Part shown: piece by piece, positions 13,897 to 61,762 of the stretch
How the letters are laid out: the number at the start of each line of letters is the position of its first letter
Position numbering within the stretch: the stretch's first letter is position 1
NCBI GenBank assembly: GCA_003483855.1
Contig: DMXP01000005.1
Span: 29,202 to 93,201, forward strand
DNA length: 64,000 nt
Direction: 5' to 3'
Source: Candidatus Yonathbacteria bacterium
GTDB lineage: Bacteria; Patescibacteriota; Minisyncoccia; Phycocordibacterales; UBA1550
Program-made: the position numbers and the translations under genes
The notes under the pieces: model-generated
The model's input: the letters and a program-made list of their open reading frames with translations, nothing else
Databases searched by the model: none
What the model was told of the DNA's origin: nothing

Positions 13897-14760
13897 TTAA
13901 AATTCCTGACAGACTTGATCAACTTCTTCTACTACTCTTCCAATCTGTTCATCCGTAAAGCCAATTGATTTCAATGGAGCTGGATTATTCTTTAAATCGC
14001 GACACATCACAATTCCTTGTTCAAGTAAATTATTTTTGTCACTCTGACTAAGTGTAGAAAGAAATGTAAGCGGATGCACTCCCGTTTCCAAGATTAAATC
14101 CTGCAAATTGCCTTTTTCAGGATAGTCCCAGCCAATCACAGTGAGCCCAGAGCAATTCGCATATTGAATTGCATCACTCGTGAGCTTAGTGTTTGTAATG
14201 AGCCACCCCTCGTGAACTTTCTTTACCTCTCCTTCGTGTCTTTTATGCGCTTCATCGTGAGCTTTCTGCAAATCCATAAATCGCGCACGGACATAAAGCG
14301 CGACCTTCACGTCTGTTTTTATACCTTGCTGATTGTGGAACTTGCACTCTGCAAAAATATGCCTGTCGCCTTTTTCCATAAGCACGTCCACCTCGTGATC
14401 AACACAAAATCCCTGTAGAATTACACCTGTCTCTGCAGTGTAACCCTTTCCACGCAAAACTTCCGCGACAAATTTTTCAAATGGAAATCCGCTAGGCCCG
14501 AGCTCTAGCACTGCTTTCCTTAGCGAATAACGAATAGCGGCAGGATATTTTTTTTTCTTGAGAATAGAGTACGCGTGCTTGTAAATCTGCGAAGTCTTCA
14601 TCCCCTCGTGAAGCTCTGGGAGAATGTGCTCAACTATACGCTCTATAGTTTCATCGTCTGCACCAGAACGCGTAAGCGAACGACGAAGTTTATTAAGAGA
14701 AAATCGCTCACGCTCGCCAGTGCTTTTTATGACCCACACGTCATCTTGCTCTTTGTTCAT
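13897..14760 (-). CDS. ATP-cone domain fused to restriction-endonuclease-like PD-(D/E)xK domain protein
   Basis: N-terminus VWVIKSTGERERFSLNKLRRSLTRSGADDETIERIVEHI is an ATP-cone. The middle FEKFVAEVLRGKGYTAETGVILQGFCVDHEVDVLMEKGDRHIFAECKFHN is a D..EVD...ECK nuclease core. Start trimmed to MNKEQDD. Confidence 0.7.
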   Translation of the reverse strand: MNKEQDDVWVIKSTGERERFSLNKLRRSLTRSGADDETIERIVEHILPELHEGMKTSQIYKHAYSILKKKKYPAAIRYSLRKAVLELGPSGFPFEKFVAEVLRGKGYTAETGVILQGFCVDHEVDVLMEKGDRHIFAECKFHNQQGIKTDVKVALYVRARFMDLQKAHDEAHKRHEGEVKKVHEGWLITNTKLTSDAIQYANCSGLTVIGWDYPEKGNLQDLILETGVHPLTFLSTLSQSDKNNLLEQGIVMCRDLKNNPAPLKSIGFTDEQIGRVVEEVDQVCQEF

Positions 14761-14786
14761 ATTCCTTAGTTTAACACAATGAATAG

Positions 14787-14824
14787 GCAAAAGAAAAAGG
14801 TCGAGCTAAGATACTAGCTCGACC
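14787..14824 (-). terminator. rho-independent terminator
   Basis: Perfect 10-bp stem ggtcgagcta / tagctcgacc followed on the minus strand by tttttcttttgc. It lies about 320 nt downstream of the mnmA stop. Confidence 0.5.
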
Positions 14825-15143: not shown

Positions 15144-16268
15144 CTATCCCACTATTCCGCCACCAATACACTCTTTCCCATCATACAAAACTACTGATTG
15201 CCCTGCGTCAAAAACTGCTGGCTTTTCGAGGCGCAATGAAAAAGAATTTTCATTAACACTAGCAATCTTGCATTTGTACTGCTCGCCGTGGTAGCGCACC
15301 TGCGCGGTATATTTCCTTGCAGTATCAGGAATCGTTCCACTACAAAAACTCGCCTGCTCGGCTCGTAGCTCCTGCGAGGCGCACCCCAGTGCCTTTTTTG
15401 TATGAGGTGCAACCGTAATTGTATTTTTTTCAAAATCTTTTGCCACAACATAGAGTGGCGCATCGTCAGTACCTTTCTTCGTAACCATAAATCCATGACG
15501 TTCGCCAAGCGTAAAAAAGTATGTGCCACGATGCGTACCGATTATCTCGCCTTTTCCATTCAGCACACTTCCCTCTTTCTCCTCAATATAGTTCGCGAGA
15601 AAATCCTTCATATCAAGCTTGCCCACAAAACACAGTCCTTGCGAATCTTTTTTCTCCGCAACTGGCAAACCAAACTTTTTCGCAAGAGCGCGCACTTGCG
15701 ACTTTTTGTAACCGCCAATCGGGAAAAATGTTTTGCTCAGCTGTTCCTTTCCTAGTGTCCACAAAAAATACGATTGATCCTTGGTATCATCAACTCCCTT
15801 TAGCATTCTGTGTTTGCATTCACTTTTGACTTTTGACTTTTGACTTCGAATCAGCTGATTCGCGTCTTGGACGCAGACTACCTTTGCGTAGTGTCCTGTC
15901 GCCACAAAGTCCGCTCCCTCTTTCATGGCTCGTCTAAAAAATGCGCCAAACTTTACCTCGCGGTTGCACATTACATCGGGGTTCGGCGTGCGACCCTGCC
16001 TGTACTCCGCAATCATATAATCCGCCACGCCTTCTTTGTATTCCTTTTCAAAATCCCACGTGAGGAGGGGGATGCCAAGGGGCGCAGAAACGCGCATTGC
16101 GTCCAAACGCTCCTCACGCCACGTGCATGGCAAAAAATCCGGTTGCCATACCTTCATAAAAACACCCGTAACATCGTACCCTGCTTTTTGTAAAAGCGCT
16201 GCAGAAACTGACGAATCCACTCCGCCTGACATTCCAACATATACTTTACCCTTCGACTTTCTATTCAT
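15144..16268 (-). CDS. mnmA: tRNA-specific 2-thiouridylase
   Basis: VYVGMSGGVDSSVSAALL (PP-loop), ...KDQSYFL..., and a C-terminal beta-barrel. Contains an in-frame repeat-derived insertion (see repeat 15823-15874). Confidence 0.9.
   Translation of the reverse strand: MNRKSKGKVYVGMSGGVDSSVSAALLQKAGYDVTGVFMKVWQPDFLPCTWREERLDAMRVSAPLGIPLLTWDFEKEYKEGVADYMIAEYRQGRTPNPDVMCNREVKFGAFFRRAMKEGADFVATGHYAKVVCVQDANQLIRSQKSKVKSECKHRMLKGVDDTKDQSYFLWTLGKEQLSKTFFPIGGYKKSQVRALAKKFGLPVAEKKDSQGLCFVGKLDMKDFLANYIEEKEGSVLNGKGEIIGTHRGTYFFTLGERHGFMVTKKGTDDAPLYVVAKDFEKNTITVAPHTKKALGCASQELRAEQASFCSGTIPDTARKYTAQVRYHGEQYKCKIASVNENSFSLRLEKPAVFDAGQSVVLYDGKECIGGGIVG
15823..15874. repeat. 3x ttttgac heptamer plus 27-bp double palindrome (gaatcagctgattc + cgtcttggacg) embedded in frame in mnmA
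   Basis: cacttttgacttttgacttttgacttcGAATCAGCTGATTCgCGTCTTGGACG. The same double palindrome occurs at 54743-54770 and 57053-57080. Confidence 0.55.
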
Positions 16269-33041: not shown

Positions 33042-33455
33042 TTAGGTATATATTCGGAAGGCTTCAACTACTCTATCAAATTCACTTTGATTAACAGTGT
33101 CCACCTTACGCAATAACCTATTATTACTAATCACGCGTGCTTGAGTAAGTTTAATCCAGACAGGCTTCGTATATTCCTCTTCCGTTTTACTATTTTTAGC
33201 TTGTATCTGAATCTCATAATGAAAGCCATCTAGTTTCTCTTTGCTCGTTATCGGTAGCACGAGCATGGTTTCTTTATTATACACTCGCACAACCAAAACT
33301 GGCCGTTCAAAATTTTCATTTTTGCCATCAACTTCTGCTCCGACATTTACACCAAGAGCGCACCACCATACTTCACGAGGATACGCATACGCTTTCTTTC
33401 CCGAATCACCTAAATTCTTTTTCTGTGAATTCCAAGCATCAAACTCTTTTTTCAT
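33042..33455 (-). CDS. MazF/PemK-family endoribonuclease toxin-like protein (no adjacent antitoxin gene)
   Basis: YPREVWWCALGVNVGAEVDGKNENFERPVLVVRVYN...MLVLPITSKEK...LTQARVISNNRLLRKVDTVNQSEFDRVVEAF aligns with MazF/PemK (RGDVY.ADL.PVVGSEQGGVRPVLVIQND...LEQIRTIDKQRL..). Confidence 0.75.
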   Translation of the reverse strand: MKKEFDAWNSQKKNLGDSGKKAYAYPREVWWCALGVNVGAEVDGKNENFERPVLVVRVYNKETMLVLPITSKEKLDGFHYEIQIQAKNSKTEEEYTKPVWIKLTQARVISNNRLLRKVDTVNQSEFDRVVEAFRIYT

Positions 33456-42415: not shown

Positions 42416-42751
42416 TTACTGGAGCTGATGCCCATCTGGACAGAAGAGAATGATCTGATCCACAAAATTATCGAGGTCTGTAGGATTGCTTCCATACTCA
42501 ACCATTTCTTCTATCACCTCATCTAGATACGCAATGGTGAATGGTAGGAGCTCAAAATTAAACTCAACCACAAACTTTTTTCTTGAGGTAGAAAAGTTTT
42601 TAAAAAAATCCTTCTCAAAAACTGGGACTCGTGTGCCTTTTGTTTTCTCCTCCTCAATTACCAACTGCATTAATACTGAAAGCCGGTCTGACTCATTTGG
42701 TAAAAAAGAAAGCGTGGTCTTGCCATCACTCGGGTTAAATCTGACGTCCAT
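42416..42751 (-). CDS. hypothetical protein
   Basis: 111-aa ORF with no recognisable domain. Confidence 0.4.
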   Translation of the reverse strand: MDVRFNPSDGKTTLSFLPNESDRLSVLMQLVIEEEKTKGTRVPVFEKDFFKNFSTSRKKFVVEFNFELLPFTIAYLDEVIEEMVEYGSNPTDLDNFVDQIILFCPDGHQLQ

Positions 42752-42859
42752 ATCACACCTCCTTCATCTTCGCAAATTTAAGGAACAAAAAATGTGACCA
42801 GTGGCAACTACGTTTATTATAAAGCGATTAGAATATTTGAGCAAGGAGCCCGCCTCCGC

Positions 42860-43198
42860 CTTTCGATTCTCCTCGGAGTCACACAATAGCAAAAGATGTC
42901 CCGAGGCTCTCGGTCACGGGTTACTAATTAATTTTTGGATAGCCTCGTCGTGTACGACAGGTCTAAGACTAGCGTGTGGTCAACACGTAAGTAATTTTGC
43001 TAAATCAAAGTCACTAAGTCTACTCGTGTGTCGCGTTTCAATCGACACTACGCGACGCGATTTTGCAAAATCGACACTGCGTGGACGTAAGTGCTCGCGA
43101 CCCCAGAGTCCAAGATTAGGGCCAAGCCCCGAATTTGTTAATTCGAAATCTGCAGATTCGTCGTGGTTTTGCGTGCTCGCAAAACATCACTGCGCTTT
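42860..43198. repeat. mosaic noncoding repeats next to tRNA-Ala, including a 45-bp segment repeated at 57660-57704
   Basis: 43116-43160 ttagggccaagccccgaatttgttaattcgaaatctgcagattcg is near-identical to 57660-57704. An inverted partial copy of the tRNA-Ala T-arm (ttcgattctcctcgg) lies at 42866-42880. aatcgacact is duplicated. Confidence 0.45.
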
Positions 43199-43239
43199 CC
43201 ACAAACTAAAAACCTGCCGCAGGGCAGGTTTTTAGTTTG
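43199..43239 (-). terminator. long hairpin terminator immediately after tRNA-Ala
   Basis: ccacaaactaaaaacctgcc-gcag-ggcaggtttttagtttgtgg, a 20-bp stem with U-runs on both strands. Confidence 0.5.
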
Positions 43240-43313
43240 TGGACCCGAGGAGAATCGAACTCCTTACCTCCGGAGTGCAAAACCGGCGCTCTAGCCAGGT
43301 GAGCTACGGGCCC
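43240..43313 (-). tRNA. tRNA-Ala (anticodon TGC)
   Basis: Cloverleaf GGGCCCG-TA-GCTC...GAGC-G-CCGGT-TTTGCAC-TCCGG-AGGTA-AGGAG-TTCGATT-CTCCT-CGGGTCC-A. The G3:U70 identity pair is present. Confidence 0.9.
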
Positions 43314-43348
43314 AGATATCAAAACACTACTTTAGCAAACTACCTAGA

Positions 43349-43430
43349 TTTTTACAGCGCCGGTTTTGAAACCGGCGACTATTATTCCTCTCGGCAGAGC
43401 CTCGTGGCCAGGTGAGCTACGGGCACATTC
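43349..43430 (-). other. degenerate partial copy of tRNA-Ala (5-prime half) plus perfect hairpin
   Basis: gccaggtgagctacgggc (43399-43416) duplicates tRNA-Ala 43296-43313. gcgccggttttgaaaccggcgac mimics the anticodon arm as a perfect hairpin. The rest cannot fold as a tRNA. Confidence 0.35.
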
Positions 43431-43533
43431 ACCACATTTAACAATTAACTTGTGACATGTGACAAATTCAAACCCATTTGTGCGGGTCAATTGTCAATTA
43501 TTCTTAGTTAAATGTTATCCCGTCTATAATACC

Positions 43534-44499
43534 TTATTTTTTCCTTAATGCAAGGGTGAGCACATAGTCAACAAATTCTGGAAGGGTGAGCCCACTCTGC
43601 GAGAGTGATTTCATGAGGAGCGATGTATCGGTAAGTCCGGGGAGTGTGTTTACTTCTAAAAGGTACGGCCCTTCTTCTGTCAAAATAAAATCGTATCTCG
43701 CATAATGTCGCGCGCCAAGGTGGGCGTGAGCGCGGAGTGCATCTTCCTCAAGGGCTCTGCGTTCAGCGTCGCTCATGCGCGCGGGTCCTACTGGATGCGT
43801 CAGATTCCTATATTTTTGATCATAGTCAAAAAGCTTCCCATCTGGTAAAAGAATCTCAAGAGCGGGAGTTGCGTATGAACCAACCCCTTCTGATGAATCT
43901 ACGACACCAACTGTAACCTCGCGCCCTCGCACGTACTCCTCAATCATTGCCTTCTCCGAGTATGCGAGAGCGCGCTCTATCGCGGACACAAGTTCGCGGT
44001 CTGTATGCGCGAGAGAGAGGCCTACTGACGAACCTCCCGAAAGTGGCTTCACCACATACGGCGCCTTTATCTCAGATCCGACACGCGCCACGACCTCGCT
44101 CACCTCCTCGCCTCTGGAAACAACGAGCCCACGTGGCACCTTGATGCCGACAGCAGAAAAGTATTTCTTCGCGAGATCTTTGTTCATACCAATAGCAGAA
44201 GGCATCGCTGTGGAACCAGTGTACGGAATATTAAAAAGCTCAAGAATTTTTTGCACTTTTCCGTCCTCACCAAACTCACCATGAAGAGCGTTGAAAACAA
44301 TATCAACGTGTTGAGCAAGTTTCGCCGGGCTCGTTGGTCTGCCGTCTATGTGCCACTCGCCAGCGTTTGTGATAAGTATATCGTGTGCTTCATATTTGTC
44401 CGAAGGAAGCGCTGAGAGCACGTTTCCACCAGTACGAAGAGAAACATGGTATTCGCTACCAAGCCCCCCGCGCATAACACCGACCCGAAGTTTGTTCAT
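43534..44499 (-). CDS. ddl: D-alanine--D-alanine ligase
   Basis: MNKLRVGVMRGGLGSEYHVSLRTG...ATP-grasp motifs...EVNTLPGLT. Start trimmed to MNKLRV. Confidence 0.9.
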   Translation of the reverse strand: MNKLRVGVMRGGLGSEYHVSLRTGGNVLSALPSDKYEAHDILITNAGEWHIDGRPTSPAKLAQHVDIVFNALHGEFGEDGKVQKILELFNIPYTGSTAMPSAIGMNKDLAKKYFSAVGIKVPRGLVVSRGEEVSEVVARVGSEIKAPYVVKPLSGGSSVGLSLAHTDRELVSAIERALAYSEKAMIEEYVRGREVTVGVVDSSEGVGSYATPALEILLPDGKLFDYDQKYRNLTHPVGPARMSDAERRALEEDALRAHAHLGARHYARYDFILTEEGPYLLEVNTLPGLTDTSLLMKSLSQSGLTLPEFVDYVLTLALRKK

Positions 44500-44591
44500 A
44501 CAGACAGTATACAAGAGGTGTGTCACTTGCGAAAGTGCCACATTGATTTTAGTGCTGTTTCTGATAGTATGAGCAAGTATTTATATTGATT

Positions 44592-44672
44592 GCCGGAATG
44601 GTGGAATGGTATACACGTGCGACTCAAAATCGCATGCCGCAAGGCTTGTGGGTTCAAGTCCCACTTCCGGCA
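44592..44672 (+). tRNA. tRNA-Leu (anticodon CAA)
   Basis: GCCGGAA-TG-GTG...CAC-G-TGCGA-CTCAAAA-TCGCA, a 13-nt variable arm, GTGGG-TTCAAGT-CCCAC-TTCCGGC-A. Confidence 0.9.
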
Positions 44673-44684
44673 CAAAGCGTAAAA

Positions 44685-44708
44685 AAACCTGCACTGCTGC
44701 AGGTTTTT
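44685..44708 (+). terminator. rho-independent terminator after tRNA-Leu(CAA)
   Basis: aaacctgca-ctgc-tgcaggttt followed by tt. Confidence 0.6.
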
Positions 44709-44930
44709 AGCTTTGTGCGGGCGGAGTGATGTTCCGCGACCACGCGGAACCGCGAGCCGGGGGCGGCAAGTACTTACGGCTATGAGAGCGTATCCGCTTG
44801 AAGAGACTTAGTAACTTATGCTCACACAGACTCAGTCGGGCTTTGCCCGTCCTTACCTTTCCCTTCGTGACCGACCCTCTCTCGGCACAAGCAAAGCGGG
44901 TGTGACCGAAGGTCGCACCCGCTTTTACTT
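44709..44930 (+). repeat. ~220-nt structured noncoding segment ending in a terminator; member of the tRNA-flanking mosaic repeat family
   Basis: Contains cgcgaccacgcggaacc, gcgagccggggg, gtacttacgg and gagacttagtaac, shared with 46531-46610 and 57300-57660. The 5-prime gctttgtgcgggcgg pairs with the 3-prime cggcacaagcaaagc. It ends with gcgggtgtgacc-gaag-gtcgcacccgc then tttt. Confidence 0.35.
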
Positions 44931-44961
44931 AAATTGTCAGTTGTCAAATGTTCCTCCCAAT

Positions 44962-45582
44962 TTATATCTTCCCCACCAAGTCCAATCCCGGCTTCAATGT
45001 GTCATCACCTGGCTCCCAGCTTGCTGGACAGACATTGCCACCATGCTCACGAACAAATTTTGCCGCCTGCAGTTTACGTACGAGCTCCTTTGCGCTTCGC
45101 CCTACGCTGTTATCGTTTACTTCCACTATACGAAGAATACCATCTGGATCAACCACAAATGTTCCGCGAAGCGAAAGTCCTTCTTCGGGAATGTATGTGC
45201 CAAACATATGGCAAAGTTCACGACGAGTATCAGAAATCATTGGGAACTTTATTTTCTTGATAGCTTCCGAAGTGTCGTGCCACGCCTTATGAACAAAAAC
45301 AGTATCTGTTGAAACTGAAAGCACTTCCCCGCCAAGTTTTTGAATCTCCGCATAGTTGTCCGCCATCTCCTCAAGCTCTGTTGGGCAAACAAACGTAAAG
45401 TCAGCTGGATAGAAAAAGAGAATGAGCCACTTTCCGCGATAATCAGAAAGTTTAATCTTTTTTACTTCTTCATTGTGAAATGCTTCCACCAGAGCGTCTG
45501 GAATTTCGTGTCCTATTTCCGCAAACATTAGCATATCTACCGAACATCCTCCACAACACTCATTCATATCTTTATGTTTCAT
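44962..45582 (-). CDS. peroxiredoxin (AhpC/TSA family)
   Basis: WLILFFYPADFTFVCPTE carries the peroxidatic Cys. There is a Cys-rich N-terminal 16 aa (MKHKDMNECCGGCSVD). The start could instead be the Met at ~45534. Confidence 0.85.
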   Translation of the reverse strand: MKHKDMNECCGGCSVDMLMFAEIGHEIPDALVEAFHNEEVKKIKLSDYRGKWLILFFYPADFTFVCPTELEEMADNYAEIQKLGGEVLSVSTDTVFVHKAWHDTSEAIKKIKFPMISDTRRELCHMFGTYIPEEGLSLRGTFVVDPDGILRIVEVNDNSVGRSAKELVRKLQAAKFVREHGGNVCPASWEPGDDTLKPGLDLVGKI

Positions 45583-45625
45583 GGTAGTAATTTATTGTTT
45601 ATTGATATATAAGTAATATACCAAA

Positions 45626-46528
45626 ATGGCACCAAAACAGAAAGATAGGATAATCGCTGTTGTCGGTCCAACAGCCTCAGGCAAGAGCGCTCTTGCTGTA
45701 GAGATTGCTCGCCTTGTTAACGGCGAGATTATTTCGGCTGATTCACGACAGGTTTACACTGGGCTTGATATCGGCACAGGCAAGGTCACGAAACGAGAGA
45801 TGCTTGGTGTGCCCCACCACATGCTTGATGTCATAAATCCTAAACGAACAATGTCGGTCGTACAGTACGAACGCCTCGCCACACGAGAAATAGAAGATAT
45901 TTTGAAGAGAGGAATAACCCCCATCATTTGCGGAGGCACGGGGCAATACGTTGACGCAGTACTTACCACTGCTTCATTCCCTGAGGTTCCACCAAATGCA
46001 AAACTCAGGAAAAAATTGGAGAAACTTTCGGCTGAAAAACTTTTTAAAAAATTGCAGAAAATGGATCCTGCGCGGGCAAAAACAATTGATGCAAAAAATC
46101 CACGACGGCTCATTCGCGCAATTGAAATTGCAGAAGTGCTCGGTAGTGTGCCATCGCGCGAGCCTGCGACCGAGCGCTATGACACTCTTTACATAGGACT
46201 CGCGCTTCCAAAAGAAGAACTGTCAGAACGCATCCACAAGCGCCTCGTGGCACGTATGCGCCAAGGCATACTAGCCGAAGCGAAGCGTTTGCACGAGAAA
46301 GGTCTCTCCTGGAAGCGCATGAAGGCACTTGGACTTGAGTATCGCTTCCTTGCGCAATTTTTGCAAAATAAAATCTCAAAAGAGGAATTGCTTGATTTGC
46401 TTGAAATTGCAATTCGTCAGTACTCAAAACGCCAGATAGTTTGGTTTAAGAGGAATGAGAAGATTAAGTGGTTTGAGCCAAGTGAGTCTAAAAAGGTTTT
46501 GTCAGTTGTAGTAAAATTTTTGAAATAG
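45626..46528 (+). CDS. miaA: tRNA dimethylallyltransferase
   Basis: IIAVVGPTASGKSALAVEIARLVNGEIISADSRQVYTGLDIGTGK. Confidence 0.9.
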   Translation: MAPKQKDRIIAVVGPTASGKSALAVEIARLVNGEIISADSRQVYTGLDIGTGKVTKREMLGVPHHMLDVINPKRTMSVVQYERLATREIEDILKRGITPIICGGTGQYVDAVLTTASFPEVPPNAKLRKKLEKLSAEKLFKKLQKMDPARAKTIDAKNPRRLIRAIEIAEVLGSVPSREPATERYDTLYIGLALPKEELSERIHKRLVARMRQGILAEAKRLHEKGLSWKRMKALGLEYRFLAQFLQNKISKEELLDLLEIAIRQYSKRQIVWFKRNEKIKWFEPSESKKVLSVVVKFLK

Positions 46529-46530
46529 AA

Positions 46531-46803
46531 GCGGGCCCACGAGTCCGCGGTCCCGAGTTACTAAGTATTTTTCCACACTTCGTGTTCAAAAATCCTAAGT
46601 GTTCGCGACCACGCCTCGGCGACCCAGTGAGTACACTGTGTGCTCCCGATTTCTTAGGTTGTACTCAACCTCTTGAAATCGCAGTGCCCTAGATTTATCG
46701 TGGCCCCGCCTGCGGTTTTCGAGTCCTCGTGGGCCTAGCAGTAACAACAAACCCCAAACACTGTCGTGTTTGGGGTTTGTTACTGCGGGCCCACGAGGAC
46801 TCG
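46531..46803. repeat. noncoding repeat region containing an 84-bp near-perfect palindrome (46720-46803) that incorporates the tRNA-Trp 3-prime end
   Basis: cgagtcctcgtgggcc-tagca-gtaacaacaaaccccaaacac-tgtc-gtgtttggggtttgttac-tgc-gggcccacgaggactcg. A third degenerate copy gcgggcccacgagtccgcgg lies at 46531-46550. ccgagttactaagtat and gttcgcgaccacgc are shared with other tRNA-flanking regions. Confidence 0.45.
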
Positions 46804-46856
46804 AACCTCGGTCTGCGCGTTTGGAGTGCGATATTCTACCACTGAACTATAGGCCC
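46786..46856 (-). tRNA. tRNA-Trp (anticodon CCA), with an unusually weak anticodon stem
   Basis: GGGCCTA-TA-GTTC-AGTGGTA-GAAT-A-TCGCA-CTCCAAA-CGCGC-AGAC-CGAGG-TTCGAGT-CCTCG-TGGGCCC-G. It sits directly downstream of rpmG, the classic rpmG-tRNA-Trp position. Only 3 Watson-Crick pairs in the anticodon stem. Confidence 0.6.
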
Positions 46857-46931
46857 TATAGCTACTGCCTTACAAATCGGAGTATATCAAAATACTCATG
46901 AAAAGAAAAACCCGGCATTGCCGAGTTTTTT

Positions 46932-47090
46932 CTACTTCTTTGCTTCCTTGTGAGAAGTATGAGCGCGACAAGAATTGCAGTATTTGTCTAGCTCAATTTT
47001 ACGCTCAACAAGCTTCTTGTTCTTGCGAGTCCAATAGTTTATGCGCTTGCACTTCTTGCAGGCGAGTTTGATAAGTTGGTCTTGTGACAT
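46932..47090 (-). CDS. rpmG: 50S ribosomal protein L33
   Basis: 52-aa ORF below the ORF-track cutoff: MSQDQLIKLACKKCKRINYWTRKNKKLVERKIELDKYCNSCRAHTSHKEAKK. It has the Cys4 zinc ribbon and typical L33 length. Confidence 0.85.
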   Translation of the reverse strand: MSQDQLIKLACKKCKRINYWTRKNKKLVERKIELDKYCNSCRAHTSHKEAKK

Positions 47091-47138
47091 AATTTTCCTA
47101 TCCTACTACACTCAGCACAAAAAGGCAAGAAAACTGCT

Positions 47139-47172
47139 ATTTAAAAAAGACGGGTGATAATATCACCCGTCT
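47139..47172 (-). terminator. rho-independent terminator after the HDOD gene
   Basis: aagacgggtgat-aat-atcacccgtctt, a perfect 12-bp stem. The minus strand continues with TTTTTTAAAT. Confidence 0.55.
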
Positions 47173-47195
47173 TAACTATTTATTATCATTTACTA

Positions 47196-47840
47196 TCATG
47201 CGCATTTATCAGAATACGTATCGATGTTTGCGCAAGCAATCATCTTTGCATCATACCATGACGTGTAAAGATATCCTGCTTCAAAAGGTTTGGTTCCTTT
47301 TTCAAAACCGTTTATGAGCTCTTTCACCTGATCAATAGTTGATATTCCTTCCATTTGAATACCATGCGCATATGAAGAACTAAAGTAGTCCCTGAGCTCG
47401 TCGTTACATTCGTAAAGTATCGATTCGTCCTCCTCTATGAGTGGTGCGATAAGACCTGCCAAAAAATGTTCTGGGGCTTTTTTCTTTCCAAATATTTGCT
47501 CAGCGAGCGACGCGTACACTGATGCAAGAATGTAACAATCTATTGCATGATTCAATATCTTGCGCTCCTCGTGCAGTGGCGCATATTCAACACGATTAAT
47601 TTCATACTCAACCTTACTGAATCCAAGTATATTTATGATACCATGGACACTCGTAGGTCTTCTGAATGAACCGTGACATATACACATATGATTTGTCATG
47701 CGCAAGAGTCTCACAACAAGGTAAGGTTGAAAGACCAAAAGTTTTGCAATGTCTCCAAACGAAGAATCCTTGTTTGCAAGCAAGTTAGAGAATTTCTTGA
47801 TGAACCCTTGTGTCACATACACCTTTTCAAATTCTTCCAT
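47196..47840 (-). CDS. HDOD-domain (HD-related output domain) signalling protein
   Basis: FGDIAKLLVFQPYLVVRLLRMTNHMCICHGSFRRPTSVHGIINILGFSKVEYEINRV fits the HDOD pattern. Start trimmed to MEEFEKVY. Confidence 0.65.
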   Translation of the reverse strand: MEEFEKVYVTQGFIKKFSNLLANKDSSFGDIAKLLVFQPYLVVRLLRMTNHMCICHGSFRRPTSVHGIINILGFSKVEYEINRVEYAPLHEERKILNHAIDCYILASVYASLAEQIFGKKKAPEHFLAGLIAPLIEEDESILYECNDELRDYFSSSYAHGIQMEGISTIDQVKELINGFEKGTKPFEAGYLYTSWYDAKMIACANIDTYSDKCA

Positions 47841-48042
47841 TCTACCCTCCTGTGTATTATTTTGTGATGTAAATGTACTGGTGCACATAATATCATAAAA
47901 TATGGGATTATGTCAAATAGCAATTTTTTAGAATTAAAAATCTAGTAGAACCTTTAACGGATTCATAATTTTGTACACCTGTAAATTAGCAAATTTTAAT
48001 CTTGGCAAAAGGATTCTCTTTTTCGAATCCTTCCCAACACTA

Positions 48043-48079
48043 CAAAAGCCAAAAGCCTCCAACTCTCTCGAGTTGAGGG
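48043..48079 (-). terminator. terminator after tRNA-Tyr
   Basis: cctccaactc-tctc-gagttgagg hairpin. The minus strand continues with cttttggcttttg. Confidence 0.5.
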
Positions 48080-48090
48080 CTAGGTTTTTG

Positions 48091-51907: not shown

Positions 51908-51956
51908 TTGAATATTGAATGTTGAATTAGCGTCCAAGACGTGAATTTGTTAATTC
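51908..51956 (-). promoter_or_regulatory. CATTCAATATTC heptamers + cgtccaagacg palindrome + GAATT-n4-AATTC palindrome upstream of the HtrA-like gene
   Basis: Coding-strand reading: gaattaacaaattc-acgtcttggacg-ctaattcaacattcaatattcaaccct then ATG. Confidence 0.35.
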
Positions 51957-52023
51957 AAGAATGTAGAACAAATGCGGATACAAATACTCTCAATTCTTTA
52001 TTATTGTAATTGTACAGCCTTGT

Positions 52024-54285: not shown

Positions 54286-54753
54286 ATGACACCAGAAGCT
54301 CTACAAATAACCGTTATCGTATTGAGCGTTATCATGATAGCGCTCTCTGCATTGGTTTTTGTATTAGAGCGTCGTATGAAAAAGCTACTCGCGGGGAAAG
54401 ACGCATTGAGTCTTGAGGAAACAATTGTAGCCCTGGGCAAAGACATTCGCGCTCTGGAAAAGTTTCAGTCAGATACGGAGAACTACATTACTGATTCAAA
54501 CAGACGCATCAAGCGAAGCATTCAAGGTGTTGAGACAATTCGTTTCAACGCTTTCAAAGGCAACGGTGAAGGAGGAAACCAAAGTTTCGCAATCGCGCTC
54601 CTGTCTGAAAATGGCGATGGAACGGTAATCTCCTCCCTCTTCGCTCGCGACCGAATGAGCATCTTTGCAAAGCCCATCAAAAACTTCACTTCCGAACTTG
54701 AAATGACAGACGAAGAAAAGGACGCGGTCAAACGCGCGACACCGAATCAGTAG
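54286..54753 (+). CDS. DUF4446-like small membrane protein
   Basis: N-terminal TM, then ...RFNAFKGNGEGGNQSFAIALLSENGDG... Its stop codon lies inside the 27-bp double-palindrome element. Confidence 0.55.
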   Translation: MTPEALQITVIVLSVIMIALSALVFVLERRMKKLLAGKDALSLEETIVALGKDIRALEKFQSDTENYITDSNRRIKRSIQGVETIRFNAFKGNGEGGNQSFAIALLSENGDGTVISSLFARDRMSIFAKPIKNFTSELEMTDEEKDAVKRATPNQ

Positions 54754-54770
54754 ATTCGCGTCTTGGACGT
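54743..54770. repeat. 27-bp double palindrome (gaatcagtagattc + cgtcttggacg)
   Basis: Same element as 15846-15874 and 57053-57080. Confidence 0.45.
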
Positions 54771-54819
54771 AAAATTAATAAGTTCCTCATACGTTCGCGT
54801 TTGTATTTTCATTTTTTTT

Positions 54820-57052: not shown

Positions 57053-57080
57053 ACGTCCAAGACGTGAATCAGCTGATTCA
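57053..57080. repeat. 27-bp double palindrome (cgtccaagacg + gaatcagctgattc), inverted order relative to 54743-54770, abutting tRNA-Cys
   Basis: cgtccaagacgtgaatcagctgattc. Confidence 0.45.
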
Positions 57081-57152: not shown

Positions 57153-57418
57153 CAAAGAAAATTCTGTTAAGAATTTTCTTGGCGTGGGAGCAGGTAAACT
57201 GCTTTGCCTGCGTCGGGTCCTAAATTTCGCACAACTTTGTTGTGCGAAATCTTACGACATGATTTTTGAAGCGCAAAAATCAGAATCGAAGGGCGGAGCA
57301 TGTCGCTTGCGACAGCGAGCCGGGGTCGCGAACACTTTGTAGTTTTCAAGCGAAGCGAAGAAAAATACTTAGTGATTCGTGACCGAGAGCGCCCACGCCT
57401 CAAGAAACAATTAAATAC
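57153..57418 (+). repeat. hairpin-dense spacer between tRNA-Cys and tRNA-Leu carrying tRNA-flanking mosaic motifs
   Basis: gaaaattct-gtta-agaattttc (57161-57182), tttcgcacaac-ttt-gttgtgcgaaa (57226-57250), gcgagccggggtcgcgaacac, agcgaagcgaag and aaaaatacttagtgattcgtgacc are shared with 44709-44930, 46531-46610 and 57597-57704. Confidence 0.4.
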
Positions 57419-57499
57419 GTCCGGGTGGTGGAATGGTATACACAGGAGACTTAAAATTTCCCGCCGTAAGGCTTATGGGTTCGAGTCCCATCCCGGACA
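57419..57499 (+). tRNA. tRNA-Leu (anticodon TAA)
   Basis: GTCCGGG-TG-GTG...CAC-A-GGAGA-CTTAAAA-TTTCC, a 13-nt variable arm, ATGGG-TTCGAGT-CCCAT-CCCGGAC-A. Confidence 0.88.
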
Positions 57500-57720
57500 C
57501 AAAATTAACAAGCGGAAAGCGATAGCTTTTTGCGACTGTAATTTTGTAGTCCGGGATGGGACTCGAAAGCCGGAGGCGGGCACCTTGTGTAATCACAAGG
57601 TCGCTGAGGCGGGGTCGCGAGTACTTAGGAGCGAAGCGACTTAGTAACTCGGGCCAAGCTTAGGGCCAAGCCCCGAATTTGTTAATTCGAAATCTGCTGA
57701 TTCGTGACCGCGGACCATCC
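57500..57720 (+). repeat. post-tRNA-Leu noncoding repeats: inverted copy of the tRNA 3-prime end and the 45-bp segment shared with 43116-43160
   Basis: gtagtccgggatgggactcgaaagcc (57547-57572) is the reverse complement of the tRNA-Leu T-arm and acceptor. 57660-57704 ttagggccaagccccgaatttgttaattcgaaatctgctgattcg. Confidence 0.45.
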
Positions 57721-57807
57721 CTGTATTACCAAACAAGATTTGCCGAGCAAGCTAGTCCAATTGTAACAAACAAAAACACCCATAAGGGGTGTCTATGTTT
57801 ATATTTG

Positions 57808-57890
57808 TGCCGAGGAGAGGACTTGAACCTCCATGGGTTAACCCCGCTTGCTCCTAAGGCAAGTGCGTCTACCAATTTCGCCACCTCGGC
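57808..57890 (-). tRNA. tRNA-Leu (anticodon TAG)
   Basis: GCCGAGG...CTTGC-CTTAGGA-GCAAG, a long variable arm, GAGGTTCAAGTCCTC, TCCTCGGC-A. Confidence 0.88.
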
Positions 57891-57901
57891 ACTTCGCCCT
57901 G

Positions 57902-57974
57902 TGCACCCAGTAGGATTCGAACCTACGACCGTCTCGTTAAGAGCGAGCTGCTCTACCAACTGAGCTATGGGTGC
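57902..57974 (-). tRNA. tRNA-Lys (anticodon CTT)
   Basis: GCACCCA-TA-GCTC-AGTTGGTA-GAGC-A-GCTCG-CTCTTAA-CGAGA-CGGTC-GTAGG-TTCGAAT-CCTAC-TGGGTGC-A. There is one G-A mismatch at the top of the anticodon stem. Confidence 0.8.
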
Positions 57975-60547: not shown

Positions 60548-60895
60548 CTAGAGAGAAAGCGAAGGCGCGGTACGCGTAGTTGTGTCTAGCTTTGCTGAAG
60601 ATGTAAGAAAGTTTACTAGGCCCCAAATGGACACCATCACTGCAATACCGATAACACCGTATATCATTCCTCCTTGCTTTTCCTTGCGCGCCTCAGGGTC
60701 ACCAGCGGACATTACATAACCAAATACGTTCCAAAGAAAATACACAACAGCTCCAGCGAGAATAAGCACTGTTAATGTACTGAGTCCATCCTTCAAAAAT
60801 GCGATTAGCCCAGACACAGTGCTTGCCCCTTGCGCAATCTGCGCTCCTGCCACAAATGGTGTTAAAATGAAACCTAATGCAATAATCTTTTTCAT
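60548..60895 (-). CDS. small two-TM membrane protein, paralog 2 of 5 (signal peptide)
   Basis: MKKIIALGFILTPFVAGAQIA signal peptide, then VVYFLWNVFGYVMSAGDPEARKEKQGGMIYGVIGIAVMVSIWGLVNFL. Confidence 0.6.
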   Translation of the reverse strand: MKKIIALGFILTPFVAGAQIAQGASTVSGLIAFLKDGLSTLTVLILAGAVVYFLWNVFGYVMSAGDPEARKEKQGGMIYGVIGIAVMVSIWGLVNFLTSSAKLDTTTRTAPSLSL

Positions 60896-60977
60896 ATTTA
60901 TATTTATATTTATTAATTTACCTACGATAATTAAGGCCCGCTCGTATGCATATTATTATACGAAACTTGTGAAAAAA

Positions 60978-61265
60978 CTACAATGGTCGTTCAAACCGCT
61001 CCAAATTGATGCGGTCTGAAGTGTTTAATTTGAGCGAACCAGTGACAAAGTTTACCAACCCCCACATAGACACCATTACAGTGATAGCAATAATGCCCCA
61101 CACCGCTTGTTTCTTCACTTTTGCAAGCTCCTCTGGGTTGTCGTTGTTCTTGTACACCCCCATCATGTTCCATAGGAAAAAAACCACAGCCACACCCAGA
61201 AAAATAGAGAAAAACGGCGTTATGACCGTGTTAATGATGTAGTTAATAAATTCCTTGAAATTCAT
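60978..61265 (-). CDS. small two-TM membrane protein, paralog 3 of 5
   Basis: From MNFKEFINYII: VVFFLWNMMGVYKNNDNPEELAKVKKQAVWGIIAITVMVSMWGLVNFV. Confidence 0.55.
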   Translation of the reverse strand: MNFKEFINYIINTVITPFFSIFLGVAVVFFLWNMMGVYKNNDNPEELAKVKKQAVWGIIAITVMVSMWGLVNFVTGSLKLNTSDRINLERFERPL

Positions 61266-61270
61266 AATTA

Positions 61271-61762
61271 TTACTGGGTAAGCGTTGAAACAGTCTGCCC
61301 GATAATCTGCGCAAATCCCCACGCACCGAGGAGGATAAATGTGCCAATAATACTATACCAAAGGATATTTTTCGCTTCTGTTAATTTCGTGTCATTTCCT
61401 TGCGCGCTTACAAAAAGGAACCCAGAATAAATGAAGGCGAGGACGATAAATGGCATAAGCACCTGAACAGCGGTTTTTGTGACAGCGGTGGCAAACTGAG
61501 AGAACGTGGAATATTTTATTGGGTTTTGGAGTTTTGTGTTTGCGGAGAGGCCAGAAGTACCGCCTGAAGGCGCTGTACTTCCTGATGGCGCTGTACTTCC
61601 TGATATTGATGGAGCAGAATAACCGCTAGACATCACAGGGAGGGAACAATCAATACCAATGTAATCTGGATCGCCAGGAACGCACTGATCTGCCATTGCA
61701 AAAGAAGGGATTCCTATCAAAACAGCCAATAATGTCGCGCCAAATATTTTTTTCATATCCAT
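61271..61762 (-). CDS. small membrane protein, paralog 4 of 5 (signal peptide, Cys pair, Ser/Thr/Pro-rich linker)
   Basis: Signal peptide, DQCVPGDPDYIGIDC, then SGSTAPSGSTAPSGG encoded by a direct DNA repeat at ~61560-61610, then the C-terminal two-helix module FIYSGFLFVSAQGNDTKLTEAKNILWYSIIGTFILLGAWGFAQIIG. Confidence 0.55.
   Translation of the reverse strand: MDMKKIFGATLLAVLIGIPSFAMADQCVPGDPDYIGIDCSLPVMSSGYSAPSISGSTAPSGSTAPSGGTSGLSANTKLQNPIKYSTFSQFATAVTKTAVQVLMPFIVLAFIYSGFLFVSAQGNDTKLTEAKNILWYSIIGTFILLGAWGFAQIIGQTVSTLTQ

Follow-up and report, generated by a model that had tools for sequence, protein, structure and literature searches.

Hairpin-rich insertions flanked by copies of the preceding gene's 3' end: an element family behind tRNA genes of Patescibacteria

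Introduction

What has left partial copies of a tRNA-Ala gene, in both orientations, on either side of that gene? The locus lies in a 64,000-nucleotide stretch of Candidatus Yonathbacteria DNA (the window). Its first-pass annotation had described an inverted T-arm copy, a recurrent block, a trailer hairpin and a degenerate 5' half around the gene and read them as the footprint of repeated site-specific integration and excision or, alternatively, as a family of tRNA-linked small RNAs. Patescibacteria genomes are among the most streamlined in bacteria; despite this, six of the nine tRNA genes in the window are accompanied by elements or remnants of several hundred bases each. These small hairpin-rich insertions are a family in Patescibacteria that is previously undescribed as far as Rfam and the searchable literature go. 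Indeed, literature searches found no description of such elements. The group I introns described for Patescibacteria tRNAs sit at position 35/36 in the anticodon loop and are distinct from them, and a paper on horizontal gene transfer in Patescibacteria mentions neither tRNA nor integrases.

Results

The tRNA-Ala locus consists of three stacked members or remnants of the element family and one upstream relic (Table 1). The hairpin that uses the tRNA trailer is much as first described, with 21-nt arms that are 100% complementary around a 4-nt loop, and it has orthologous counterparts at four loci (L134, L146, L143, L050). Only this first module (T1/PC, AAAAACCTGCC-CTGC-GGCAGGTTTTTAG) combines a GC-rich hairpin with a U tract in the manner of an intrinsic terminator; hairpins A and B are not terminators. 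The module is homologous to the lone terminator of the empty locus L131. The block reported to recur as 45 bp next to tRNA-Leu(TAA) proved to be slightly longer (52 nt at 96% identity), and its two copies have opposite orientations relative to their host elements. It is missing from the orthologous elements L134, L146 and L050, and L046 has a shorter version at the same A/B junction. The inverted T-arm copy is genuine as well: segment 43245-43259 of tRNA-Ala recurs without mismatch in inverted orientation as the 15-mer ttcgattctcctcgg (~1e-4 matches expected in 128 kb of two strands, an arithmetic estimate), and the match extends to 27 nt at 81%. However, the 15-mer lies at 42862-42876 rather than 42866-42880, i.e., 4 nt off. 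The 5'-half copy upstream was recovered too (43407-43427 versus 43294-43314, 21 nt at 95%), and the intact tRNA-Ala lies ~43 nt beyond the pseudo 5' half. L128-130 and L143/144 have this copy at their orthologous locus, too, and L119 has it more fully: there, an A/B element can still be recognised at this position.

Table 1. Positions of the elements, their parts and their remnants in the window.
Feature	Positions	Strand	Parts	Basis
tRNA-Ala(TGC)	43239..43313	-	CCA not encoded; target segment X = last ~22 nt	ARAGORN; Rfam, 59.5 bits
Ala: long perfect hairpin, terminator-like PC module of short-form element	43198..43243	-	arms 43223-43243 (tRNA end and trailer) and 43198-43218 (ending in X' GTTTGTGGA); loop CTGC	self-comparison
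Ala: hairpin A of proximal short-form element	43161..43197	-	AAGCGCAGTGATG..CCACGA	family covariation
Ala: 52-nt module between hairpins A and B	43110..43161	.	three mini-palindromes; second copy 57654-57705, within Leu(TAA) hairpin B	repeat comparison
Ala: hairpin B of proximal element, expanded and degenerate	42975..43109	-	5' strand GGGGTCGCGAGCACTTACG 43086-43104; ACTTAGTGAC 43010-43020; closing strand GTGTTGACC-ACA 42975-42987	covariance model, 22 bits
Ala: older long-form element remnant	42895..42927	-	hairpin B 3' strand TTAGTAACCCGTGACCGAGAGC 42906-42927; degenerate sense tRNA 3'-end copy CTCGGGACATC 42895-42905	homologous remnants in L148, L128
Ala: start of further truncated element	42842..42876	-	antisense T-arm copy CCGAGGAGAATCGAA, then hairpin A 5' base AAGGCGGAGGCGGGCTCCTTG	complete version in L127
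Ala: upstream pseudo 5' half	43349..43430	-	tRNA positions 1-21 (43406-43426); degenerate insert; palindromic remnant GTCGCCGGTTTCAAAACCGGCGC (43357-43379)	direct repeat; alignment to L119
Element behind tRNA-Leu(CAA)	44670..44926	+	X-PC-X' hairpin 44670-44718; hairpin A 44719-44760; hairpin B 44760-44823; second B 3' strand 44861-44876; sense copy 44881-44898; second terminator 44893-44926	covariance model, 49.6 bits
Element behind tRNA-Trp	46531..46781	-	terminator hairpin 46746-46781; X' 46718-46735 (18/18 antisense); hairpins A, B 46546-46654; sense copy 46531-46546	covariance model, 53.7 bits
Core-less version behind tRNA-Tyr	48004..48089	-	terminator 48054-48083; antisense copy TGGGAAGGATTCGAA 48022-48036; possible degenerate sense copy 48004-48018	antisense copy; strain variant L122
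Long-form element behind tRNA-Cys	57154..57408	+	terminator 57154-57180; X'a 57181-57188; PC hairpin 57189-57212; two extra hairpins; X'b 57281-57290; hairpins A, B to 57387; sense copy 57390-57408	covariance model, 92.2 bits
Element behind tRNA-Leu(TAA)	57529..57723	+	X' to 57567 (39-nt arm, 79% complementary); hairpin A 57568-57612; hairpin B 57613-57709, split by 52-nt module; sense copy 57710-57723	covariance model, 49 bits

Two conserved hairpins account for the short motifs seen to recur at the Leu(CAA), Trp and Cys/Leu(TAA) loci, the motifs being parts of them, and a pattern built from the motifs has three matches in the window versus none in 100 shuffles. A covariance model detects exactly five copies in the window, each directly downstream of a tRNA gene. 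Five of the nine tRNAs are followed by homologous elements of 250-450 nt and a sixth by a core-less remnant, and the suspected mosaic noncoding family linked to tRNAs is borne out by these copies and by many further Patescibacteria loci. Three of the five elements face convergent genes. The predicted fold of the Cys locus reproduces the layout of the element (z = -8.2). In a strain variant of the Tyr locus (L122), there is a mini core, and the sense repeat matches at 19/19 positions from C56 on. The terminators behind tRNA-Leu(TAG) in the window and at empty loci are ordinary ones with no X' extension. At the gathering score, Rfam 15 recognises only the tRNAs in the window, and a search of 42700-47200 with E up to 5 gave nothing credible beyond them.

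A complete copy lies on the sense strand directly past the terminator hairpin of a tRNA, tmRNA or, more rarely, protein gene. Its layout from 5' to 3' is the 3' end of the gene (X), the terminator hairpin, an antisense segment X', the hairpins A and B and, last, X once more in sense orientation; the noncoding inserts measure ~120-400 nt. X' is antisense to the last 5-30 nt of the preceding gene and abuts the terminator stem, so that X, terminator and X' form a single long hairpin. The junctions of the core are invariant: A(A/G)G follows X', and GUGAC(C) ends hairpin B directly ahead of the sense copy. Hairpin B carries the boxes GGUCGCGA..ACUUAG and CUUAGU..UYGUGACC (note that the conserved boxes of the A/B core are partly imposed by the search pattern used), and its tips are variable. 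Most hairpin tips are C-GNA-G or other triloops, a kind of unusual stability in DNA and not in RNA. Across the family, paired cells make up 88% of hairpins A and B versus 76% in shuffles, and several pairs switch between GC and AU or between GC and CG in roughly half of the sequences. Furthermore, a conserved G-U pair makes the A/B fold strand-specific.

In the long forms, which occur at tRNA and tmRNA genes, a hairpin with a CUGC loop (PC) splits X' opposite the T-stem/acceptor boundary; at mRNA-linked copies X' is undivided. PC hairpins were found 86 times versus twice in shuffled sequence. In 13 long forms from ~10 tRNA species, the PC flanks are antisense to adjacent or near-adjacent tRNA segments that meet near the T-stem/acceptor junction, the segments being contiguous or at most 1 nt apart in 10 of them. 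Paired with either copy of X, X' is predicted to give a three-way junction that resembles a tRNA's top half in shape. Other cores, or no core at all, can be found within the same X'/X architecture as well. A loose pattern for a "type 2 core" gave 12 matches versus 8 in shuffled sequence; as this is no enrichment, we make no count-based claim for this core.

The terminal arms X' and X are different at every locus. Over at least 8 nt, 50% of the copies match the preceding gene in antisense, versus 2% in the control, and 48% have a sense repeat of that minimum length, versus 6%. Sense repeats are ~6 to 40 nt long and begin either at C56 of the T-loop or 3-4 nt short of the tRNA end. The longest ones without mismatches have 37-40 nt (L060, L039), and a 38-nt repeat with two mismatches spans the ftsZ stop codon in L040. 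In about half of the copies, a recognisable sense copy is gone. Perfect 19-nt repeats coexist with imperfect X', which suggests that X' can predate the sense repeat. In two related MAGs (L071 and L078), X' tracks recent changes in its own X and the distal sense copy retains the older sequence, suggesting re-templating or selection rather than a fixed guide.

The core pattern has at least 124 matches in at least 120 Patescibacteria genome loci, mostly in lineages labelled Paceibacteria/Parcubacteria. Among the matches listed, 83 are located 32-409 nt past a same-strand tRNA (30 anticodons), all 83 lying on the tRNA strand. Further hosts among the listed matches are tmRNA (6 loci), intron-containing tRNAs, ftsZ, rplL and rplB, and the A/B boxes are kept across many Patescibacteria lineages in this set. 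Many tRNAs of element-bearing genomes have no element, and the possibility that the motifs are universally conserved parts of tRNA processing sites is therefore dismissed. The viral contigs scanned with the core pattern gave 0 matches, and no free, circular or autonomous copy was seen.

The first-pass annotation had proposed to look for empty sites in sister genomes, and these do exist. Of 16 orthologous ddl-tRNA-Ala contigs with enough downstream sequence, 11 have an element and 5 have none. The Ddl proteins of the window, L127 and L128 are 94% identical, yet the three loci have three different element configurations; together with the empty loci, this means that elements have been gained and lost. 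In L128, the tRNA-adjacent terminator matches the lone terminator of the empty locus L131, and the insert starts right after it, i.e., insertion took place past a pre-existing terminator. L133 represents the empty site relative to L143 at the position of the upstream pseudo 5' half. The order of short and long forms varies between lineages (window versus L081), and tandem arrays are present in L039, L022 and L143. Strain-level look-ups with MiaA and RbfA returned identical configurations only, with no polymorphism at that depth. The window copies are old and divergent and thus make no case for recent transposition in this genome.

Another proposed check, for integrase genes near further copies, came out negative: at the 120 listed loci, no recombinase-like neighbour cluster is recurrent, and clustering of the neighbour proteins gave housekeeping families only. 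Integrase, transposase and reverse-transcriptase domains were not found in the 58 window ORFs of the Pfam scan, which left aside the ORF truncated by the window edge (1-2401) and a small number of short ones. ORFs occasionally lie between tRNA and 3' fragment, e.g., a Ham1-like one in L106 and one of 199 aa in L119.

Discussion

The elements share features with several known systems. Like the islands and prophages of tyrosine integrases, they use tRNA/tmRNA 3' ends, have a direct repeat from the T-loop or near the 3' end, leave an intact gene on one side and accrete at one site. Unlike these islands, they have no integrase, are noncoding, measure 0.1-0.4 kb, contain an antisense copy, insert past a pre-existing terminator and share one core among dozens of targets. 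REP/BIME, ERIC, BOX, RUP, Correia and Rickettsia palindromic elements are likewise multi-copy, modular, hairpin-forming, intergenic and noncoding, and repeats of this type are often found at gene 3' ends, co-transcribed, and in mosaic module combinations. However, none of these families is known to carry copies of the individual insertion site in both orientations, and our elements, unlike them, have no constant terminal inverted repeats or fixed-length target duplication. Compared with REP/BIME (RAYT-associated imperfect palindromes of 20-40 nt with a conserved head), hairpin modules and mosaicism are present; no RAYT-like gene was found among the scanned window ORFs. The locus-specific X'/X arms and the repeat length of ~6-40 nt do not fit MITEs, in which terminal inverted repeats are constant and target-site duplications have a fixed length.

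Integron attC sites and CTX-phi attP resemble the elements: the hairpins are imperfect, their tips vary, bases bulge out, the boxes at the base are conserved, and structure is better conserved than sequence; in CTX-phi attP (XerCD), an inverted target-like pair folds to mimic the double-stranded target. In contrast, the elements have no R/L boxes (GTTRRRY), intI or dif-like arms, and PC would interrupt a duplex mimic. Their boxes read GGTCGCGA/TYGTGACC and ACTTAG/CTTAGT, they follow tRNAs rather than cassettes, and no intI is present in the scanned ORFs. Furthermore, attC and CTX-phi sites are folded single-stranded, whereas a single-stranded DNA stage of our elements is hypothetical. Group IIC introns insert just past intrinsic terminator stem-loops as well, where they are harmless, and recognise their sites partly by base pairing. 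Unlike them, the elements have no domain V/VI, reverse-transcriptase ORF or Rfam intron match, and their size is 5-10 times smaller. Group II introns went undetected in Patescibacteria in one survey (PMC13011429). Moreover, the tRNAs are intact and no group I or II intron model matches at the element sites; the same tool did find genuine group I introns in L003 and L082.

An internal segment complementary or identical to insertion-adjacent sequence is also a property of type V-K CRISPR-associated transposons, IS110 bridge RNA and IS200/IS605 guides; the homing crRNA of type V-K transposons matches a tRNA gene, and these transposons home downstream of tRNA genes. But such guide-bearing elements encode their own enzymes and have one target per element, whereas in the present family the matched gene differs from copy to copy and there is no linked enzyme. 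The tRNA-like domain of tmRNA, mascRNA-type mimics and RNase P external guide sequences bring two distant strands together to rebuild the acceptor-plus-T-stem helix and place a side arm where the junction naturally is, as the modelled structure would do. Unlike in these processing signals, the T-loop is fully paired here, the neighbouring tRNA rather than a generic one is copied, and the family is also present at mRNA ends that show no tRNA likeness. A T-box is not indicated: Rfam has no match, the pairing is to the T-arm and acceptor strand rather than to NCCA, and three of the five window elements face convergent genes. The same orientation led us to drop a leader or riboswitch of the downstream gene. 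We also rejected a duplicated tRNA gene (X' is truly antisense, TTCGATT T-loops becoming AATCGAA), a retroviral-type primer-binding site (X' pairs with the gene-encoded trailer, not with CCA), a retron (there is no reverse transcriptase among the scanned window ORFs) and a diversity-generating retroelement (repeat differences are not adenine-specific). A kissing interaction of the CUGC loop of PC with GCAG of hairpin A was dropped as it shows no covariation, and snap-back copying as the source of tandem units is contradicted by L039, where the loop recurs in direct orientation instead of being complemented.

The reading that we favour, with a probability of about 45%, is one of non-autonomous modular insertion elements: they would land behind terminator hairpins, each with an arm that matches its target in the manner of a guide. 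The mechanism that we infer is as follows. The elements would be mobilised in trans, the target-matched X' (with X) serving in a single-stranded state as a recognition or docking arm and hairpins A and B as the handle for the moving protein. Insertion would be harmless because the landing site lies past the terminator, and later recombination between copies, along with small secondary hairpin insertions, could have given the observed mosaic. A stricter version, in which X'a-PC-X'b would serve as guide by docking on single-stranded 3' ends of the tRNA, tmRNA or mRNA gene or transcript, so that miniature elements would pick their insertion site by base pairing and A/B would recruit a trans-acting enzyme, appears unlikely. 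Several points count against the insertion reading as a whole: a pre-programmed guide alone does not explain how ~30 targets each gained a matching X' and X, X' tracks its own X in L071/L078, and the searches gave no enzyme, no viral match and no free, circular or autonomous copy. The placement of PC at a structural junction of the tRNA argues for an RNA-level logic and against insertion elements. The main alternative, itself doubtful, is a read-through RNA module, where X'-PC-X'-A-B-X, transcribed by polymerase that has passed the first terminator, would fold like a tRNA top half with the acceptor and T-stem sequence of the upstream tRNA and would either be cut from it by RNase P, RNase Z and the CCA-adding enzyme or persist as a stable small RNA, dispersal being purely historical. 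Such a module would suit the covarying, strand-specific hairpins with G-U pairs, the common strand of all 83 tRNA-linked listed matches, the PC position in the 13 long forms and the undivided X' at mRNAs, the strong predicted fold, the persistence of the boxes across many lineages and the convergent neighbours, which are not what leaders of downstream genes would face. The strand-specific covarying hairpins would fit the earlier small-RNA idea as well. Against both, the terminator precedes A/B (in short forms it is part of the unit) and the copies are patchy: many tRNAs of the same genomes and 5 of the 16 orthologous tRNA-Ala loci have none. Against the read-through module in addition, about half of the copies have no recognisable sense copy, the decay of antisense copies seems to keep pace with that of sense copies, as in neutral sequence, the ftsZ, rplL and rplB copies are not tRNA-like, and the predominant triloops are of the kind that is stable in DNA rather than RNA.

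Dedicated targeting would be superfluous if X' and the sense repeat arose by hairpin-driven template switching at terminators during replication or repair, X' by growth of the palindrome into the gene end and the repeat by renewed copying of that end, with small REP-like hairpin repeats (A, B, PC, the 52-nt module) scattered into such unstable sites. We think this improbable. X' always adjoins a hairpin to give a continuous long stem, it tracks its own X in L071/L078 while the distal copy is older, core-less and other-core versions share the X'/X layout, and the repeat length is variable, all of which would fit template switching; but it leaves unaccounted for the constant core junctions, the X'a-PC-X'b split at the same position in many independent tRNAs and the ordinary terminators of tRNA-Leu(TAG) and the empty loci. 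Finally, the integration and excision first proposed, in which islands of tyrosine integrases would have left attL/attR-like partial copies, is largely refuted and very improbable, although parts of it, as of the RNA-family idea, hold up. Sense repeats do start at the T-loop (C56) or the 3' end, reportedly the two classic tRNA sublocations for integration; several fragments can build up at one tRNA, the elements are flanked by partial sense copies of tRNA 3' ends, orthologous sites are filled or empty, and the Ham1-like and 199-aa ORFs could be cargo. But integrases are neither found in the scanned window ORFs nor recurrent near the listed copies, the inserts are small, noncoding and built on shared structured cores, antisense copies are not a product of integrase recombination, the tRNA-adjacent terminator was there beforehand (L128 versus L131), and ~30 targets would need equally many integrase specificities.

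The family is defined by its combination of a conserved scaffold with an antisense arm whose match is to the gene, of whatever kind, that precedes the element. As this is the layout of guide-based systems, it offers a concrete lead to a new targeting or processing mechanism. If the guide reading is true, ultra-small bacteria would possess a native, protein-sparing form of programmable targeting with no gene of its own; a bacterial RNA-guided activity on tRNA 3' halves would, if true, be equally novel. The elements explain differences in tRNA loci between close relatives, and the analysis yields a covariance model and clear filled and empty sites. At present, they are left unannotated or miscalled as ORFs, e.g., 42801-43235 and 57300-57644 in the window.

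Homologous elements behind tRNA genes

The window comes from the chromosome of a Patescibacteria bacterium and carries housekeeping genes (rpoB, alaS, leuS, the ATP synthase operon, ddl, miaA, Clp ATPase, infB, rbfA) and nine tRNA genes (ARAGORN); the contig matching it originates from a groundwater metagenome. At gathering score, Rfam detects tRNAs and nothing else in it. The first-pass annotation had described tRNA genes embedded in mosaic repeats and inverted copies of their own 3' ends, and all items on its list were found in the sequence. Its inverted T-arm copy beside tRNA-Ala is exact over 15 nt (4 nt from the position reported), its "45-bp block" is a 52-nt repeat, the trailer hairpin of tRNA-Ala has perfect 21-nt arms and a CTGC loop, and the copy of the tRNA 5' end (21 nt) lies 113 nt upstream. 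Its recurring short motifs are pieces of conserved hairpins; combined into a search pattern, they gave three matches in the window versus none in 100 shuffles.

The sequences that follow tRNA-Ala, Leu(CAA), Trp, Cys and Leu(TAA) align as homologues, and a covariance model built from 116 element sequences has exactly five matches in the 64 kb, namely these five sites. In the direction of the tRNA, the element starts with the tRNA 3' end (X) and a terminator-like hairpin; a segment antisense to X (X') abuts this hairpin and extends its stem, followed by hairpin A, hairpin B (boxes GGUCGCGA..ACUUAG and CUUAGU..UYGUGACC, one U-U mismatch, one bulged A, variable tip) and a sense copy of X, after which some copies have a second terminator. 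The predicted fold of the Cys locus matches this layout (z = -8.2). A sixth tRNA, tRNA-Tyr, has the terminator and the antisense copy without the A/B core. A third module, the CUGC-loop hairpin PC, occurs 86 times in the window and the compared Patescibacteria loci (L handles) versus twice in shuffled sequence; in long forms it splits X', and in short forms it is itself the terminator.

The proposed pairs are standard in 88% of the cells of the 116-sequence alignment, compared with 76% after shuffling and 32-45% with partners slid. At several pairs, GC and AU (or GC and CG) are about equally frequent. A G-U pair is nearly invariant at one position, and GC and GU alternate at another; therefore, the fold belongs to the gene-sense strand. 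At other positions G-U exceeds A-C only modestly, and the invariance of the boxes is by construction, as they were part of the search pattern. Tips of hairpin B are triloops in 66 of 115 cases, many of them C-GNA-G, a loop type that is unusually stable in DNA; this is only a hint.

Features in the window and in compared Patescibacteria loci (L handles)
Feature	Source	Position (strand)	Remark
Short-form element, nearest tRNA-Ala	window	43243 to about 42975	52-nt palindromic module at A/B junction
Older long-form remnant	window	42895-42927	3' half of hairpin B, decayed sense copy
Start of another long form	window	42842-42876	inverted T-arm copy (42862-42876), then base of hairpin A
Upstream pseudo-half of tRNA-Ala	window	43349-43430	decayed version of the arrangement intact at the same position in L119
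52-nt repeat	window	43110-43161; 57654-57705	96% identity
X' of Trp element	window	46718-46735	18/18 antisense
Sense copy of X, Trp element	window	46531-46546	
Sense copy of X, Cys element	window	57390-57408	
Stand-alone relatives (52-nt module, first part)	window	51931-51957 (+)	
	window	57054-57080 (+)	directly upstream of tRNA-Cys
	window	54744-54773 (-)	between DUF4446 and infB
Fourth module match	window	15858-15873	inside coding region; may be chance
Mechanical ORFs, 94-144 aa	window	42801-43235 (+); 57300-57644 (+); 57679-57963 (+)	wholly over elements/tRNA genes
tRNA-Trp/tRNA-Tyr region	window	46857-48089	230-aa protein
tRNA-Trp/tRNA-Tyr region	L122	4232-6706	alanine racemase, two small ORFs
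tRNA-Tyr with other core	L122	6562-6706 (-)	58-nt core
tRNA genes split by group I introns	L003; L082; L091	2360-2602; 400-603; 	followed by elements
LOOT RNA (RF03000)	L049	3415-3542	79 bits
Cargo	L106	393-1460	Ham1-like pyrophosphatase
Cargo	L119	2003-3600	199-aa ORF without Pfam match
Restriction, toxin and pilin-like genes	window	6890-7771 and 13897-14790 (-); 33042-33455 (-); 60548-61762 (-)	two Mrr-type restriction endonuclease domain proteins; one PemK/MazF-type toxin; three tandem T4SS-pilin-like small proteins

Distribution

The hairpin B pattern was found at no fewer than 120 loci in a species-representative genome collection. Among the matches listed, nearly all locus titles name Patescibacteria lineages (Paceibacterota, Parcubacteria, Yonath-, Kaiser-, Lloyd-, Nomura- and Campbellbacteria, MAGs labelled Saccharibacteria), and several MAGs have more than one locus. 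A same-strand tRNA (30 anticodons) lies 32-409 nt (median 107) upstream in 83 of the 124 matches listed. Most of the others stand behind tmRNA (six cases, Rfam-confirmed), group I intron-interrupted tRNAs or the protein genes ftsZ (at least six loci), rplL and rplB. Viral contigs scanned for the core pattern gave no matches, and no description of the family was found in the searchable literature. The intron-split tRNA genes are missed by ARAGORN, and one of the compared Patescibacteria loci contains a LOOT RNA.

Arms derived from the upstream gene

The elements bear locus-specific antisense and sense arms. Of 101 copies, 50% have an exact antisense match to the end of the upstream gene that is 8 nt or longer (2% in controls), and 48% have a sense repeat of this minimum length (6% in controls). 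Mismatch-free sense repeats reach 37-40 nt and may extend beyond the tRNA into the trailer; their left edge is bimodal, at T-loop C56 or 3-4 nt before the tRNA end. Behind ftsZ in L040, a 38-nt sense repeat with two mismatches spans the stop codon.

In 13 long forms (~10 tRNA species), the PC flanks are antisense to two tRNA segments that adjoin or nearly adjoin each other, contiguous or at most 1 nt apart in 10 of the 13. These segments meet near the T-stem/acceptor junction, and therefore X'-X pairing forms a three-way junction in which the top half of the tRNA is reproduced. Behind protein genes X' is undivided.

Among 73 tRNAs without the A/B core, 25% have an antisense and 29% a sense arm (controls, 1% and 0%), and the antisense-plus-sense layout also occurs with other cores, so that it is not confined to a single core family. 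Behind tRNA-Tyr of L122, the terminator and antisense copy are followed by a core that does not resemble hairpins A and B, then by a 19/19 sense repeat from C56 and a second terminator. More core types with the same flanks are found in L028, L047, L020 and L073 and in L002, L069 and L018. One of these types ends in TACTG and a hairpin with a CTGTAAG loop (its loose pattern is not enriched over shuffled sequence, so that counts are unreliable), and another reads TGCCCAGA...GGGAGAT.

Gain and loss at the ddl-tRNA-Ala locus

A Ddl-based metagenome scan yielded a graded series of orthologous ddl-tRNA-Ala loci. Among 16 with enough downstream sequence, 11 have an element and five a plain terminator or unrelated sequence, so that empty sites do exist. 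Contigs with 94% identical Ddl have three configurations: a short form followed by long-form remnants (window), a single long form with an undivided 22-nt X' (L127), and a long form with PC followed by short-form remnants (L128-130); the upstream pseudo-half is present in the first and third and absent from L127. The tRNA-adjacent terminator of L128 is clearly that of the empty locus L131, where it stands alone, and the L128 insert begins directly after it, with X'. Counted from the tRNA, short and long forms come in opposite orders in the window and in L081, and in L039, L022 and L143 the units form arrays of two or three. These loci show repeated, lineage-specific insertion, deletion and recombination, which is why the window appeared mosaic. 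The elements are dispersed homologous inserts placed immediately behind terminator hairpins, and they turn over quickly.

The 52-nt module is missing in the orthologous short forms of L134, L146 and L050 and is thus a secondary insertion or an optional module. Its stand-alone relatives are intergenic, lie in either orientation and read CGTC-CAA-GACG, then a 14-16 nt palindrome such as TGAATCAGCTGATTCA; they look like binding sites of a dimeric protein or tiny mobile hairpins. The distal long form of the window is cut off by the promoter region of the next gene and has a full counterpart in L127. In L119, the upstream arrangement consists of tRNA positions 1-24, an A/B-type element, an anticodon-arm fragment and a spacer before the intact tRNA; L051 has the same one on tRNA-Val, and L133 is the empty site to L143 for this upstream class. 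Partial copies of tRNA 5' halves or anticodon arms lie 40-160 nt upstream of ~7% of the intact tRNAs in the loci (e.g., L019, L025, L048, L066, L084, L114), some with a hairpin in the D-loop region; some of these matches may be neighbouring paralogous tRNAs.

The 3' CCA is encoded in four of the five element-free tRNA-Ala loci (L131, L150, L133, L149; not in L137), whereas all element-bearing ones lack it (..TCCAC, then A-rich; window, L127, L128, L134, L142, L143, L146, L148), a difference that may be accidental or result from insertion. L137 has, about 130-400 nt beyond its tRNA-Ala, a small ORF starting MIKNSADKLYIGITDNHEQRLREHN... that resembles a putative GIY-YIG nuclease domain.

Mechanism and related systems

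We favour, with a probability of about 0.45, that the elements are non-autonomous, that X' would be the arm by which they dock or are guided while single-stranded, and that hairpins A and B would bind a mobilising factor. At several loci a perfect repeat stands alongside an imperfect X', which suggests that X' can be older than the insertion, as expected of a guide that the element brings with it. However, in L071 and L078 X' has followed recent changes in the X that it matches, and integrase, transposase or reverse-transcriptase domains were found neither in the 58 window ORFs scanned nor recurrently beside copies. Furthermore, the placement of PC makes most sense for an RNA seen by tRNA-processing enzymes. 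The main rival is a read-through RNA module, serving as a tRNA-like processing signal or small RNA, which we consider possible but rather unlikely.

That template switching alone produced the elements as a by-product is improbable. The first-pass annotation had preferred footprints of site-specific integration; the elements do share the site and direct repeats with tRNA-integrating islands, but no integrase was found in the window ORFs scanned or recurrently beside copies, and classical integrase scars are a very improbable source. An origin by chance is excluded. The family has further parallels: REP/BIME/ERIC-type repeats also have modular hairpins, integron attC sites have hairpins with conserved base and variable tip, group IIC introns likewise land behind terminators, and V-K CRISPR-associated transposons and IS110 contain an internal segment that matches the target. 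Yet the family appears to lack a defining feature of each of these systems, the tRNA islands included; for REP/BIME-type repeats this is the RAYT transposase, of which no gene was found among the window ORFs scanned. It is therefore placed among interspersed noncoding insertion elements, as a variant whose targeting principle may be new.

Neighbouring genes

Between the window and the strain variant L122, MiaA is identical, the gene sets between tRNA-Trp and tRNA-Tyr and the tRNA-Tyr alleles differ, and similarity stops ~100 nt from tRNA-Trp, so this interval is a replaceable island with a tRNA at each end. In L106 and L119, cargo lies between a tRNA and its downstream 3'-end fragment, with another element next, which hints that larger units can be captured at element sites. 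The three mechanical ORFs over elements are likely false gene calls of automatic annotation. One of the two Mrr-type proteins of the window contains an ATP-cone.
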